A stretch of DNA of 64,000 nucleotides from Syntrophales bacterium (GTDB lineage Bacteria > Desulfobacterota > Syntrophia > Syntrophales > UBA4778), in contig JBHGBI010000007.1 of assembly GCA_041946925.1 (NCBI GenBank), forward strand, positions 2,900 to 66,899, in the 5' to 3' direction. The translations under genes and the position numbers were made by a program. Under the pieces are notes generated by a model. It was not told where the DNA came from and did no database searches. It saw only the letters and a program-made list of their open reading frames with translations. Below are positions 9,037-16,380 of the stretch, piece after piece (positions within the stretch are counted from its first letter, which is position 1; each line of letters opens with the position of its first letter).

Positions 9037-11397
9037 CTATCTTATGCAAACGCTGAGGACCTGCTTAAAGTCCGTCCAGCCCTTCACGACTTTCTGCACG
9101 CCATCCTGTAGCAGTGTACGCATTCCCTCCGATACGGCGGTCTCCCGGATCAGTTCCACCGGTTCGCGTTTCGCGATCATCCTTTTGATCCGATCCGATG
9201 TCACCAGCAGCTCGTGGATCGCCATTCTCCCGCGGTAACCGGTATTGTTACATGCATCGCATCCTCCGGGGCGGAAGAGCCGGAAATCATCGTTCATGGT
9301 GATATTAAGTTCAGAAAACAGGTGCTCACCGTAATAATGGATCATCCCTTCCAATTCTTCGGCGGAAGGGCGGTAGGGTACCTTACATTTACAGAGAGTC
9401 CGCACGAGGCGCTGCGCGAGGATGGCAAGGAGAGAATCAGCGAAATTGAAAGGATCGATACCCATATCAAGAAGTCTCACGATTGTTTCGGGTGCGCTGT
9501 TTGTGTGAAGCGTGCTCAGTACTAGATGGCCGGTCAGCGACGCCTCGACCGCGATCTTGGCCGTTTCGAAATCCCTCATCTCTCCCACCATGATGACATC
9601 CGGATCGGCCCGGAGAAAGGCGCGCATCGCATTGCTGAAATCGAATCCGATCTTGGGATTGACTTGAACCTGACGCAATCCTTCCTGAGTGATTTCCACA
9701 GGATCCTCGGCGGTCCAGATTTTCATGTCGGGCGTGTTGATATGGTTCAGGGTGCCGTGCAGGGTCGTGGTTTTTCCTGAACCCGTCGGACCTACGACAA
9801 GGATTATTCCATAAGGCTTCTCCAGTACTTTGAGGAATGCGGAATAATTATGCTGGGACATGTTCATCTCGTCCAGCTTCATGGCTTCGCCCTTCGCCAG
9901 GATGCGCATTACGACATCCTCCACATTGCCTTGCGTCGGAATAGTCGCAACACGCAACTCGATCTCGTGTCCTCCGGGCTTCCTGAATCTGATTTTTCCG
10001 TCCTGGGGAAGCCGGCGCTCGGTGATATCCAGGTTGGACATTATCTTCACCCGTGATACCACAGGGGCCCGATAGCTGAAGGGAACGGTTTGATAATGGA
10101 CACAGTCACCGTCGATGCGGAATCTTATATCCAATGTTTTTTTTCCGGTGTTCGGCTCAATGTGGATATCAGATGCCTTCCGCGCGTCTGCATCGATGAT
10201 GATCTTGTTGACGAGCTGGGTGATAACGCTGTCGGATTCCGACAGAAGCTCCTCGTCCTCCTCGTCTTCCTCGTAAACTTCCAGGCGGTCGAGCATATCC
10301 GAGATGGACTCCTCGCTTTCGCCCTCCCGGTAGAAGAGATCGATGTATCTTAAAATATCTTCTTTCAGAGCCACGCAATACTCGACAGACCTGATCTTCA
10401 GAAGGTTCTCTATCGTATCCCTTTTCAGTATGTTGTCGGGATCATCAACCAGAACTCTTGTTTTTCCGTTGACTTTTTCGAGAGGAATCCATAGCTCGCG
10501 CCGGAGGTACTCCCGTCGCAACTTTCTCAGAATATCGACGGGAGCAGGCCGGCGCTCGTTGAAAGAAATAAACGGGCAACCATAATATTCTTCCAATGAT
10601 TTGCCTATATCGTTCTTGGATATCCGGAATTTCTTCATCAGGTATTCTTCCACGGTCTGATTCGCCCTGTGTGCTTCAACCCAGGAAGCGTTCAGCTCCT
10701 GTTCCTTGATCAAGCCGTGGTCGAGAAGATAATCGAATCTTGTCTTTCGATTTTCCGCCGACTTTTGCTGATTGTAAAGGGCTATGCCCAGCGCCTCGGC
10801 GATTTCCTGGAGCAATACCGGCTCCTCATCCATGAATCTGCCGGGGCGGTCCTTCTTGTTTATGATCTCGAGGACACCCATCAATTCTCCGTTATGAATA
10901 ATGGGTGCGGCCATGACTTGTCTTGTTCGAATGCCCGTCTTTTTATCCGCCAGGACATTGTGACTCAGACCCCGGTGAATGCTTTCCAACTCCTCTTTAT
11001 TGTAAGCATCTGCGACATTGACCGCCTTTTTCGTATAAGCCACATGACCGGGAATGCTCCGGCTGTCGATGGCCAGTCTGATATCGCCCGCCTTTCCGCC
11101 TGAAGCGGCCGCAGTGTATATTTCTTTTTTCAGACGATCCGCGGCGTAGATGCGGACGACCTCGGTGTCAAACAGGCCGAGAATCTTGTCTTTTGCAAGT
11201 GTAAGGATCTGTCTGGTGTTCCGTGCGGAATGAATGGAACTGGTGATGTCCTGCAAGGCCCTTTGCAGGCGAAGAATCTCCTGCAATTCCGCTATCTGCT
11301 CATCTTGTTTTTGCATGTAATCGACCATGCCTTTGCCTTCGGATTGCTGTATTCCGAAACAGGTATCGGACCTGGATGTGAAGTGTCGGGCTTGCAA
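9037..11397 (-). CDS. GAF domain-containing PilB/GspE/MshE-family secretion ATPase
   Basis: 786 aa (TTG at 11397; alternative ATG at 11328).
- N-terminal coiled coil plus a GAF-like region (LTLAKDKILGLFDTEVVRIYAAD...GVLEIINKK).
- A T2SSE_N-like region (FDYLLDHGLIKEQELNASWVEA...YYGCPFISF).
- An ATPase core with Walker A (GPTGSGKTTTL), Asp box/Walker B (DPDVIMVGEMRD), His box (GHLVLSTLHTN) and a C-terminal Cys motif (CKCK...CDAC). Confidence 0.9.
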   Translation of the reverse strand: MQARHFTSRSDTCFGIQQSEGKGMVDYMQKQDEQIAELQEILRLQRALQDITSSIHSARNTRQILTLAKDKILGLFDTEVVRIYAADRLKKEIYTAAASGGKAGDIRLAIDSRSIPGHVAYTKKAVNVADAYNKEELESIHRGLSHNVLADKKTGIRTRQVMAAPIIHNGELMGVLEIINKKDRPGRFMDEEPVLLQEIAEALGIALYNQQKSAENRKTRFDYLLDHGLIKEQELNASWVEAHRANQTVEEYLMKKFRISKNDIGKSLEEYYGCPFISFNERRPAPVDILRKLRREYLRRELWIPLEKVNGKTRVLVDDPDNILKRDTIENLLKIRSVEYCVALKEDILRYIDLFYREGESEESISDMLDRLEVYEEDEEDEELLSESDSVITQLVNKIIIDADARKASDIHIEPNTGKKTLDIRFRIDGDCVHYQTVPFSYRAPVVSRVKIMSNLDITERRLPQDGKIRFRKPGGHEIELRVATIPTQGNVEDVVMRILAKGEAMKLDEMNMSQHNYSAFLKVLEKPYGIILVVGPTGSGKTTTLHGTLNHINTPDMKIWTAEDPVEITQEGLRQVQVNPKIGFDFSNAMRAFLRADPDVIMVGEMRDFETAKIAVEASLTGHLVLSTLHTNSAPETIVRLLDMGIDPFNFADSLLAILAQRLVRTLCKCKVPYRPSAEELEGMIHYYGEHLFSELNITMNDDFRLFRPGGCDACNNTGYRGRMAIHELLVTSDRIKRMIAKREPVELIRETAVSEGMRTLLQDGVQKVVKGWTDFKQVLSVCIR

Positions 11398-11400
11398 ATC

Positions 11401-12240
11401 TCAGGAAGACATTTCTTCGGCGCTGAGCGGCATGACCGCCGCTTTTTCAACACCCGCCGGCTCGCGGGTAAAAACGATCATGAAGGGGATATGTCCGCCC
11501 GGCAAGACCTTGTCATTTGAAAGTCCCCCCGGGGGATTGGACAGGATAAGCCTGATCTCCTCCTCGCTTAATCTGGCAAGCTGTTCATAAGGAATGAGAT
11601 TGCCGCAGTAGGATACCCGGGCGGTCAACAGCTCTTTCCGGGCATTGTACAGAAATCCTATGACCCTGATCTTACCGAGCGGAAGTGTTGTCACATTTAC
11701 CGCATTCCCCTCGATGATCCTGATACTGCCGAGAAAATCGTTACGTATTATATATTGTTTCATATCCGCCACTTTCAACTGAGCGGCGGCGGAAGTCGCC
11801 TGCTTCTGTTCACTTTCCAGGAATCGGTCAATAACGGGAATATTCGTCGCGATCCAATGGACGGTCTGATAGCCTGCTTCTGGATTTATCCATAGATATG
11901 CTTGAAGCGTAGCTGCAAATATAATGAACAGGATGCCGGACCTTTTCCAGCTTCCCCAAGCCATTTTCCTGGTCTCGCCTTGAGGAGGTTTTTCAATGGG
12001 AGTCTTCCTCTTTTCCGCCTTCTTTCCGGTTTCCCCCTCTATTGCGCCGGCAGATGCCGGGATCTCCGTTTTTTCTTTTCCGGAGTGAGTGACCGTCTCG
12101 GCCGTTTCTCCGGCGATCACGGAAACGGAATTTTTCTCCGGCGGTTCGGCCGGCTCCTCCGGAGAAGAGAATCTTGACAGGAAAATATCCAGCTCCTGCT
12201 TATCACGAAGTAAGTCGAATAATTCATTCTGAATGGTCAT
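11401..12240 (-). CDS. Membrane-anchored protein with DUF3426-like C-terminal beta domain
   Basis: 279 aa. It has an acidic/Pro-rich N-terminal region, one TM helix (ILFIIFAATLQAYLWI), then a beta-rich region (LGSIRIIEGNAVNVTTLPLGKIRVIGFLYN...) that resembles DUF3426. The gap to the upstream zinc-ribbon gene is 3 nt. Confidence 0.55.
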   Translation of the reverse strand: MTIQNELFDLLRDKQELDIFLSRFSSPEEPAEPPEKNSVSVIAGETAETVTHSGKEKTEIPASAGAIEGETGKKAEKRKTPIEKPPQGETRKMAWGSWKRSGILFIIFAATLQAYLWINPEAGYQTVHWIATNIPVIDRFLESEQKQATSAAAQLKVADMKQYIIRNDFLGSIRIIEGNAVNVTTLPLGKIRVIGFLYNARKELLTARVSYCGNLIPYEQLARLSEEEIRLILSNPPGGLSNDKVLPGGHIPFMIVFTREPAGVEKAAVMPLSAEEMSS

Positions 12241-12243
12241 TGT

Positions 12244-15751: not shown

Positions 15752-15804
15752 TTTTGTTGTCCCTCTGTGGAAACGGGTTTAATCGGACTTTTCCCGTGAT
15801 GCTG

Positions 15805-15999
15805 TCATTTAAGCTTTCCTCTGTGATTTTCATAAACGTCTGTCGCCGCATATTTGAATTTATTCACCAGATCTTCCGTATCCTTGAGAGTCATCGCTTC
15901 TTTCATGGAAATTCCGGTCATGCTGGCGAGTTCCAGTCTTCCTTTCAACCCGGTCTGCTCTGTGACAATCTCAAATATGCGTAGCAGTTTCTCTCCCAT
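15805..15999 (-). CDS. Small helical protein, paralogue 1 (64 aa), unknown family
   Basis: MGEKLLRIFEIVTEQTGLKGRLELASMTGISMKEAMTLKDTEDLV... It is a paralogue of 14658-14840, with high nucleotide identity over the 5' ~130 nt. It starts 9 nt after the stop of the upstream Roadblock-like gene. Confidence 0.65.
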   Translation of the reverse strand: MGEKLLRIFEIVTEQTGLKGRLELASMTGISMKEAMTLKDTEDLVNKFKYAATDVYENHRGKLK

Positions 16000-16008
16000 T
16001 GCTTCTCC

Positions 16009-16380
16009 CTATGATACAATTGCATCTTCGAAGGCATTGACGATTTTGGGCAGAATAACATTCAACAGGAGCCCCAGTTTTGCTTTCTGGGTGTCGATGG
16101 CAATTCCCCACTGGTAGTCACCGAAAGGAAGAAACAAAATACCTTTATTTCCGGCAAGATCCAGATAGTAGAACTTTCCCAGCGGCGGATAGCCCTGAGA
16201 GAGCGCCTCTTGAATGGAGTTGGTCAATTCGCTGAACATTGTCGCCGCTCCGGGCTTCGAGTGTTCCGTCGCGATAAGTGTCTGCGCATCCGCCGTAGAG
16301 ACGATACTGGATGCGACAAGGCCTTCTCCAAGGTCCTTTTTCAAAATCTCCATACAATCATTGAGCTTTTGAATATTCAT
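16009..16380 (-). CDS. Roadblock/LC7-like protein (MglB/MglC-like paralogue), first gene of the operon
   Basis: 123 aa. The size and alternating pattern (LVASSIVSTADAQTLIATEH...MFSELTNSIQEAL...FYYLDLAGNKGILFLPFG...KLGLLLNVILPKIV) fit a Roadblock fold, including the ...LGL...-type last strand/helix seen in MglB. A strong SD (GAGGAGG) precedes the ATG. Confidence 0.55.
   Translation of the reverse strand: MNIQKLNDCMEILKKDLGEGLVASSIVSTADAQTLIATEHSKPGAATMFSELTNSIQEALSQGYPPLGKFYYLDLAGNKGILFLPFGDYQWGIAIDTQKAKLGLLLNVILPKIVNAFEDAIVS

Follow-up and report, generated by a model that had tools for sequence, protein, structure and literature searches.

An MglA/MglB gene cluster of Syntrophales with PATAN-Roadblock and ZitP-like proteins and a PilB-family ATPase: a candidate regulatory module for type IV filament assembly

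A stretch of 64,000 nucleotides from a Syntrophales bacterium (assembly GCA_041946925.1, contig JBHGBI010000007.1, positions 2,900 to 66,899), referred to here as the window, carries ten closely packed minus-strand genes between positions 9037 and 16380, numbered g1 to g10 in reading order. They encode a small GTPase pair of the MglA/MglB type, an ATPase of the PilB/GspE family, and an accessory set of PATAN, Roadblock-fold, zinc-ribbon, membrane, acidic and small helical proteins. The block is a known kind of system in a new form: a real, conserved unit that also contains two uncharacterised protein families, g7 and h60. In the favoured reading, to which a probability of about one half is given, it would be a Desulfobacterota-specific regulatory module, built around the MglA/MglB switch, that controls a PilB-family type IV filament assembly ATPase and is not a secretion machine itself. 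A preliminary description of this DNA had proposed a self-contained module in which the GTPase switch is translationally coupled to the ATPase; its observations are confirmed, and its interpretation is partly supported.

The GTPase genes, their neighbours and the ATPase

All ten open reading frames (ORFs) of the preliminary description were found again in the ORF list and by reading the sequence. They are listed here in reading order, together with the ribosome-binding site of the first gene.

16386-16390, minus strand: Shine-Dalgarno sequence GGAGG, 5 nt before the ATG of g1, read directly
16009-16380, minus strand: g1, predicted stand-alone Roadblock-fold protein of 123 aa, assigned by paralogy to the C-terminal domain of g3
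15805-15999, minus strand: g2, helical protein of 64 aa, h60 family, 71% identical to g4
14855-15751, minus strand: g3, PATAN plus predicted Roadblock-fold protein, from Pfam and AlphaFold/Foldseek
14658-14840, minus strand: g4, helical protein of 60 aa, h60 family, paralogue of g2
14189-14584, minus strand: g5, MglB, Roadblock/LC7 GTPase-activating protein (GAP) subunit of 131 aa, from Pfam Robl_LC7 and similarity to Myxococcus xanthus MglB
13547-14188, minus strand: g6, MglA-family small GTPase, from similarity to solved MglA structures and motifs
12471-13550, minus strand: g7, acidic protein of 355-359 aa that follows mglA, starting at GTG 13550 or ATG 13538
12244-12474, minus strand: g8, small cytoplasmic zinc ribbon of 76 aa, MJ0042/Zn_ribbon_4/5 type, from family-level profile matches
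11401-12240, minus strand: g9, bitopic membrane protein with one transmembrane helix and a periplasmic DUF3426 domain, from family-level PF11906 matches
9037-11397, minus strand: g10, GAF + MshEN + T2SSE hexameric ATPase of the PilB/GspE family, 786 aa from a TTG, with a likelier start at 11328 or 11316, from Pfam

At the heart of the block lies the GTPase pair. The product of g6 has 51% identity with M. xanthus MglA (6hjh, E = 1.5e-55) and also matches 3t12 (E = 1.3e-52 to Thermus thermophilus MglA). Its P-loop reads GPGRCGKT, and the intrinsic Arg (DRTLFFDF) and catalytic Gln (VPGQV) align identically with R53 and Q82 of M. xanthus MglA; judged by this similarity and these motifs, g6 is a true MglA. 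The adjacent g5 matches Robl_LC7 (PF03259) with E = 1.6e-10 and 41 bits against a cut-off of 23, and aligns with M. xanthus MglB (6h5b, E = 5e-17) over residues 9-128 of 160, where the match ends. It is thus a short form of MglB, without the C-terminal helix by which the M. xanthus protein makes allosteric contact with MglA, and it scores 57.6 bits against the cut-off of 200 for the NCBIfam equivalog of Thermus-type MglB (NF052242). In two Desulfobacteraceae metagenome-assembled genomes (MAGs; L037 and L038, ~4800-7500), mglA is flanked by two MglB-like genes in the order MglB-MglA-MglB-g7.

The upstream genes appear to enlarge the set of Roadblock-type proteins. A PATAN domain (DUF4388, residues ~30-136; PF14332, E = 9.4e-13, 48.7 bits against a cut-off of 25) opens g3 and is joined by a disordered linker to a C-terminal domain of predicted Roadblock fold (~166-290). 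The homologues of g3 form 84 clusters of the same general architecture, with PF14332 in all but one (83/84), and one is fused to a REC domain. In an AlphaFold model built on 40 homologues (predicted local distance difference test, pLDDT, 78) the C-terminal topology is alpha-beta-beta-alpha-beta-beta-beta-alpha; its top Foldseek matches are M. xanthus MglB (6izw/6hjm, E = 3e-5, template-modelling (TM) score 0.65-0.69), and it also matches T. thermophilus MglB, Asgard Roadblock proteins and LAMTOR subunits (E 3e-5 to 1e-3, TM score 0.6-0.7). The stand-alone g1 is a paralogue of this domain, with 36% identity to g3 residues 177-287 (BLASTP E = 4e-25; hhalign probability 99.8%). Neither g1 nor the g3 C-terminus has sequence or profile similarity to MglB by BLASTP or hhalign, and the fold was recovered by structure prediction only. 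The modelled fold of the g3 C-terminus is nevertheless supported, and that of g1 likewise by paralogy, so that the earlier assignment of both as Roadblock-like holds at the level of predicted structure but is not detectable by sequence. As a Roadblock paralogue other than MglB, g1 may be compared with MglC of Myxococcus.

Interspersed with these genes are the two h60 genes, g2 and g4, which had correctly been called paralogues (71% identity). They encode the most conserved small proteins of the cluster (mean column identity 67% in the family alignment, A5), and an h60 gene stands directly before mglB in nearly every Syntrophales locus. Searched against the PDB and Pfam, the h60 profile gave only spurious matches to designed repeat proteins; inspection by eye suggested a possible HTH-like pattern.

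Downstream of g7 lie a zinc ribbon and a membrane protein whose window copies both fall below threshold: g8 scores 20.5 bits against the TIGR02098 cut-off of 20.9, and DUF3426 in g9 has E = 0.041. The zinc-ribbon and DUF3426 calls of the preliminary description stand at family level. The g8 orthologues match Zn_ribbon_4 (PF13717) in 22 of 22 cases and Zn_ribbon_5 (PF13719) in 9 of 22, with all four cysteines invariant, spaced CXXC-X19-CXXC in the orthologues versus CXXC-X23-CXXC in the window copy; DUF3426 (PF11906) is found in 24 of 25 g9 orthologues, with a best E of 1e-10. In the PDB, the g8 family profile is matched best by the zinc ribbon of GltJ/AgmX (7zok, E = 0.0024), and that of ZitP (2nb9, E = 0.018) comes fourth, after two RNA polymerase III RPC10 chains. 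In g9 a conserved N-terminal cytoplasmic helix (alignment A4) is followed by a variable linker, one transmembrane helix at ~100-120 and the periplasmic DUF3426 domain.

Read together, g8 and g9 look like a split ZitP-type protein. ZitP of Caulobacter crescentus, a zinc ribbon-transmembrane-DUF3426 protein, controls polar biogenesis of the Cpa pilus and requires its DUF3426 domain, which acts as a recruitment domain and not as a platform (PMC5182063). Shared features are the CXXC-X19-CXXC zinc ribbon, a single transmembrane helix and DUF3426 in the same order, and a pilus-related context. However, the zinc ribbon and the transmembrane-DUF3426 protein are separate genes in every locus, the similarity is weak (the profile E of 0.018 to the zinc ribbon), the hosts are Desulfobacterota and not Alphaproteobacteria, and no PopZ or CpaM is known in these organisms. 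Another relevant protein is GltJ (AgmX), the ZnR-linker-GYF switch of Myxococcus gliding, whose MJ0042-type zinc ribbon is likewise tied to MglA/MglB; it binds MglB via the C-terminal helix and raises GAP efficiency (PMC11135422). The present cluster has no GYF domain, its zinc ribbon is encoded on its own as a small protein, and its MglB lacks the C-terminal helix.

The presumed output of the block is g10, which matches T2SSE (PF00437, E = 6e-122), MshEN (PF05157, E = 6e-15) and GAF (E = 5e-11). The Walker A, Asp-box, Walker B and His-box motifs show 97-100% conservation among 23 orthologues; of the proteins with solved structures, PilF (6f8l) and PilB (3jc8) match best, and the core is 40% identical to the ATPase of a canonical ATPase-platform-pseudopilin operon. 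The MshEN domain aligns weakly (E ~0.03) to MshE (5htl) and to the cyclic di-GMP (c-di-GMP)-binding domains of PilF; compared by eye with the tandem motif, RLGxx(L/V/I)(L/V/I)xxG(L/V/I/F)(L/V/I)xxxxLxxxLxxQ, its Arg, Gly and Gln positions appear to be substituted. Pfam and matches to the sequences of solved structures thus uphold the earlier domain calls for PATAN, MglB, MglA (with both catalytic residues kept) and the GAF/T2SSE_N/ATPase protein. The earlier report that the window lacks pilus assembly genes was also borne out: none of the PilC, PilT, PilMNOPQ or secretin families occurs among ORFs of at least 150 aa, and no prepilin-type motif was found in any of the six frames. One MAG with a full cluster (L011) carries a GAF-less MshEN-T2SSE ATPase on another contig (L051), and therefore the GAF-ATPase is not the sole PilB-like ATPase of that genome. 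This answers in part a second refuting condition of the preliminary description, that the ATPase is the one PilB of its genome.

The remaining gene, g7 (exact match ACE14T_03325), has no Pfam or NCBIfam match. It was one of three proteins that had been described as unknown; for the other two, g8 and g9, the match to the architecture of ZitP, a characterised type of regulator, changes that description. The g7 sequence contains two or three copies of the short motif [ST]F[IV]xE[IV]ExR[LF][DN]x[LI]FG[ED][ED], and its AlphaFold model predicts a helical domain of ~110 aa (residues 140-250, pLDDT >90), a disordered acidic linker and a C-terminal helix. Foldseek returned no match at E <=0.001, and its weak top matches were CheA-P1/Hpt domains (best E = 0.12). 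An exhaustive profile search collected 990 clusters (at 50% identity), with E below 1e-30 for 564. Many of these relatives are 700-1350 aa long with two to seven matched stretches, and the eight long relatives checked have no Pfam match. The family is large, has no Pfam model and consists of acidic proteins with multiple motifs, of which g7 represents the short form. Its members have one to several copies of a helical domain of ~110-125 aa and up to about nine acidic "LDxFFG"-type motifs, as in a 965-aa Desulfobulbus sp. protein (P0252) with about nine tandem copies of IESSLDAFFGTDEPE. All named members are from Desulfobacterota, including Ca. Electronema.

Three further ideas about g7 were considered and rejected. 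An Hpt/CheA-P1 domain is opposed by Foldseek values of E >=0.12 and by the lack of an invariant His in the conserved columns (alignment A1). FimV/HubP finds no Pfam match in g7 or the eight long relatives, and "FimV" is an IMG automatic label on three relatives. A motif common to g7 and the g9 N-terminus was dismissed when a hidden Markov model of the g7 motif failed to match g9. The cable-bacteria relatives include giant forms (P0244 and P0262, Ca. Electronema, ~1320 aa) with several helical domains, and giant forms follow mglB-mglA in the loci examined (L041, L043 and L044).

Conservation across Desulfobacterota

Related loci were collected by scanning one genome per species with the g7 alignment, to which contig look-ups were added, and were mapped by tblastn and ORFs. 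The scan returned 38 loci, all from Desulfobacterota MAGs. Among the 41 loci scored, MglB and MglA were present in all and g7 followed mglA in 40, so that mglB-mglA-g7 occurs in every locus covering it. The evolutionary core of the block is this triad, not the ten genes.

The larger unit is also conserved. The preliminary description had set beforehand, as one of its refuting tests, whether the adjacency of these genes is a one-off. That refutation fails, since the full gene set was found in ~27 Syntrophales loci; all full clusters come from this single order. Their canonical order is [Roadblock]-h60-PATAN-Roadblock protein-Roadblock-h60-MglB-MglA-g7-zinc ribbon-DUF3426, and the internal Roadblock gene is missing from the window and from its closest relative (L009). 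Of 26 informative PATAN-containing loci, 25 have the GAF-ATPase as a neighbour, placed in one of three ways. In the first it lies downstream on the same strand (the window, L004, L009, L013, L015 and L016), in the second downstream and convergent (L002 and L011), and in the third, the Smithella type, ~6 kb upstream, past a divergent two-transmembrane HAMP-like gene and a REC gene. In L004 an MCP-CheW-REC set (MCP, methyl-accepting chemotaxis protein) lies upstream and a PilZ gene precedes the ATPase. The flanks of the Syntrophales loci hold no platform, pilin or secretin genes.

The two-transmembrane protein of the Smithella-type clusters, encoded between the ATPase and REC genes, is ~320 aa long (in L005 at 5262-6242, minus strand) and has orthologues in 15 loci. 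It has a periplasmic helical region, a HAMP-like segment TWDADDAIGELV, no output domain and no Pfam match.

Outside Syntrophales, the triad is found beside other type IV filament genes. In a Desulfococcus MAG (L036) the triad, with mglA before mglB (8664-10564, plus strand), is divergent from an operon (2201-8020, minus strand) for a ComEA-like HHH protein, T2SSE, T2SSF, GspH and a pseudopilin, in which the T2SSE protein is a different ATPase from g10. Two Desulfobulbales loci carry an orphan T2SSF platform gene 5 kb upstream of the triad. In these three loci the triad is linked to genes for type IV filaments independently of the Syntrophales clusters. ComEA-like genes are also present upstream of the triad in L037 and L038, and such neighbours offer a hint of a DNA-uptake type pilus.

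In different Desulfobacterota, a housekeeping neighbourhood of TatD/Maf/YggS-like genes was observed to host either the triad (L043, 6351-9153) or an orphan GAF-MshEN-T2SSE ATPase (L047, 8255-11716; L048, 8874-11339; L049, 10001-16064). This common neighbourhood could be the remnant of an ancestral shared locus, or a coincidence.

Proposed mechanism and alternative readings

In the proposed mechanism, MglA-GTP would be the ON state and MglB the GAP of MglA. The Roadblock paralogues, g1 and the g3 C-terminus, would join MglB or MglA in the manner of Myxococcus MglC. The PATAN part of g3 would contact the N-terminal region of the ATPase, by analogy with PATAN and PilB1 in Synechocystis, and would thereby couple the GTPase state to motor recruitment or activity. 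g8 and g9 would work as a split ZitP that tethers the cytoplasmic module to a defined envelope site, probably the pole, and g7 may be a multivalent acidic scaffold or an effector of MglA. The GAF domain of the ATPase would take a small-molecule input, and phospho-signals could enter through the REC and two-transmembrane HAMP-like proteins of the Smithella-type loci or the MCP-CheW-REC set of L004. The filament machinery that is served (platform, pilins and secretin) would be encoded elsewhere. ATPases of the PilB family depend on a platform protein and on pilins; because the block encodes neither, it reads as a regulatory module rather than as the self-contained one of the preliminary description.

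The regulatory reading is supported by published PATAN-PilB binding, MglA action on PilB, and ZitP control of pilus biogenesis. The PATAN domain of Synechocystis PixE binds the N-terminal domains of PilB1 and PilC, in a study that left open a conserved PATAN role with MglA/MglB and pilus ATPases (bioRxiv 10.1101/2021.06.11.447907). MglA controls the formation of type IVa pili through SgmX (PMC11580455), and PATAN genes were occasionally seen near mglA in earlier comparative work (PMC4316618). In agreement with the preliminary description, no paper describing this gene combination was found in the searchable library of literature that was consulted.

The closest comparison is with the Myxococcus polarity module (MglA, MglB, MglC, RomR/RomX, RomY; SgmX/FrzS/SopA, PilB). 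Both have adjacent mglB-mglA genes, an MglA that is 51% identical with Arg and Gln in place, extra Roadblock-fold paralogues (cf. MglC) and, presumably, a PilB-family ATPase as output. However, no homologue of RomR, RomX, RomY or SgmX was detected in the present system, the C-terminal helix of MglB is absent, and the accessory set consists of PATAN-Roadblock, h60, g7 and the split zinc ribbon/DUF3426 proteins. The ATPase here carries a GAF domain and lies beside the switch, whereas Myxococcus pilB lies in the pil cluster. Another comparison is with the cyanobacterial PatA-type PATAN-REC proteins (PixG/PixE/LsiR), which bind PilB1 and PilC. A PATAN protein and a PilB-type ATPase with MshEN/GspE_N are common to both, and in some variants of the present cluster REC is beside or fused to the PATAN protein. 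In contrast to the cyanobacterial proteins, PATAN is here fused to Roadblock instead of REC and set with MglA/MglB, and contact with the ATPase is suggested by analogy. The Streptomyces conservons (CvnA kinase, CvnB Roadblock, CvnC small protein, CvnD MglA-like GTPase) show a similar order of Roadblock, small helical protein and GTPase, and a sensor link. They differ in that h60 has no detectable similarity to CvnC/DUF742, that the present GTPase stands close to MglA and is paired with MglB, and that PATAN, zinc ribbon, DUF3426 and ATPase genes are also present.

A bolder proposal, tentative but of some substance, is that g7 belongs to a large family of MglA partners, so far undescribed and always tied to mglBA throughout Desulfobacterota, cable bacteria included, which would act as a multivalent polar hub or nucleotide-state regulator, the functional counterpart of RomR/RomX or FimV/HubP. 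The ten-gene block would then be the first locus to encode a whole signal-to-motor path, which would start at the GTPase switch, pass by way of a multi-Roadblock (Ragulator-like) scaffold and a PATAN adaptor, and end in a ZitP-like membrane anchor and a PilB-type motor.

Several points weigh against the favoured regulatory module. Its mechanism is argued from gene context and by comparison with distantly related organisms. The MglB of the window is without the C-terminal helix that the GltJ zinc ribbon binds, and PopZ, the partner of ZitP, is alphaproteobacterial. g10 lies below the equivalog cut-offs for PilB (TIGR02538, 512 vs 675.65) and GspE (TIGR02533, 491 vs 630.25), and no platform protein or pilin is encoded close to the cluster. 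On one contig with a PATAN gene (L014) no ATPase was seen within 15 kb, and the Desulfobacterales and Desulfobulbales carry only the triad, sometimes with a zinc ribbon or PATAN gene, and no GAF-ATPase. Less closely related GAF-MshEN-T2SSE ATPases stand as orphans in housekeeping neighbourhoods (Maf, TatD or YggS), away from any mgl gene, so that the tie to the ATPase may be peculiar to this lineage.

The last of these points bear most directly on a rival explanation in which mglB-mglA-g7 alone is the functional unit and works as a switch for polarity or positioning in another process, such as gliding or the placement of division sites or organelles. The GAF-ATPase would then be no more than a neighbour passed on by vertical descent in Syntrophales, with no mechanistic coupling. 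The triad without the GAF-ATPase in every Desulfobacterales and Desulfobulbales locus, the orphan ATPase relatives, the confinement of full clusters to one order and the ATPase-free L014 are what this rival would predict. It is nevertheless rather doubtful: the ATPase stays adjacent despite at least two relocations or inversions within the order, a different T2SSE/T2SSF/pseudopilin operon abuts the triad in Desulfococcus, and the cluster contains PATAN and a ZitP-like pair, both of types with published links to PilB or pilus biogenesis.

Alternatively, the cluster could chiefly carry the output of a chemosensory or two-component pathway, in the manner of the cyanobacterial Tax systems with their PATAN-REC regulators. 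It would then tune the activity or direction of pilus extension in response to signals and would not form a cell-polarity oscillator. PATAN is the output domain of Tax-type regulators and one PATAN-REC fusion exists, the ATPase bears a GAF sensor domain, MCP-CheW-REC genes are directly upstream in L004, and REC and two-transmembrane HAMP-like genes lie inside the Smithella-type cluster. However, the window's own cluster has no REC, CheW or MCP gene, the neighbouring PAS kinase and PAS-LuxR genes are not conserved with it, and MglA/MglB with intact catalytic residues argue for a central GTPase switch. As a separate explanation it is unlikely; it overlaps with the favoured module and does not exclude it.

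To our knowledge, every characterised PilB/GspE-family ATPase acts on a PilC/GspF platform. This makes it quite improbable that the GAF-ATPase, the transmembrane-DUF3426 protein, the zinc ribbon and g7 form a new kind of self-contained, MglA-switched membrane machine without a PilC-type platform or pilins, a reading that would fit the lack of platform, pilin and secretin genes in the window and every Syntrophales flank, an ATPase under both equivalog cut-offs and the consistently orphan ATPase relatives, but that is opposed by the typical motifs and 40% identity of the ATPase core to a canonical-operon enzyme, by the placement of the ATPase and DUF3426 genes in different operons at most loci, and by the recruitment role of DUF3426 in ZitP.

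The cluster brings together in one conserved block elements that have been studied apart: MglA/MglB polarity control of type IV pili in Myxococcus, PATAN-to-PilB signalling in Synechocystis and ZitP-type zinc-finger polar regulators in Caulobacter. This suggests a single ancestral regulatory toolkit, used to position the motors of type IV filaments, to which all of them belong. The block also brings to attention two uncharacterised families tied to a small GTPase, g7 (with its 990 clusters) and h60. Concrete candidate pairs for interaction are the PATAN-Roadblock protein and the N-terminal part of the ATPase, the zinc ribbon and either MglB or the N-terminus of g9, and MglA-GTP paired with g7 and with h60. 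The hosts, syntrophic Syntrophales and relatives including cable bacteria, are ecologically relevant organisms in which pili matter for aggregation, motility and possibly electron transfer.

Gene junctions and the rest of the window

The strong Shine-Dalgarno sequence that had been reported for the first gene is the GGAGG listed above. The intergenic region before g1 spans 295 nt (16381-16675), in which a consensus scan found no convincing promoter; promoter-like and terminator-like matches within the block were not above shuffled-sequence controls in the same scan. Most of the tight junctions are as first described. mglB abuts mglA (TGAATG, gap 0 nt), g7 and g8 share an ATGA overlap at 12471-12474, and g8 and g9 are separated by 3 nt. 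The GTGA overlap of g6 and g7 (13547-13550) is in the sequence if GTG 13550 is the start of g7, but two independent gene callers chose ATG 13538, 8 nt downstream of the overlap. Similarly, the 3-nt gap between g9 and g10 holds only with TTG 11397 as the start of g10; because the N-termini of 22 orthologues align to M24 or M28 (11328 or 11316), the true gap is probably ~70-80 nt. The proposal that the ATPase is translationally coupled to the switch is doubtful, as it rests on this uncertain TTG, and such coupling is not conserved: in relatives the ATPase is convergent or ~6 kb upstream.

None of the related loci shares the genes that flank the cluster in the window, and the two regulatory neighbours were therefore ruled out as members of the unit. 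One encodes a PAS-HisKA-HATPase-REC hybrid kinase (6489-9026, plus strand), convergent to the ATPase gene, and the other a PAS-PAS-LuxR regulator (16676-17956, minus strand) upstream of g1; neither is kept beside the cluster in related loci. The window begins with dnaN (443-1561, plus strand) and gyrB (1624-4038, plus strand), genes that are typically near the replication origin, and the cluster lies only ~5 kb away.

Further along the window, a 736-aa PilZ-domain protein (40671-42881, minus strand) overlaps by 4 nt a GAF-PAS-HisKA-HATPase-REC hybrid kinase (37810-40674, minus strand), and the two may be a c-di-GMP-linked signalling pair. A stand-alone GAF protein is encoded at 46668-47234 (plus strand). 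Finally, an ORF of 1843 aa (49247-54778, minus strand) contains two UvrA_inter and two UvrA_DNA-bind domains and ABC_tran, and resembles a tandem-duplicated, double-length UvrA-like protein.

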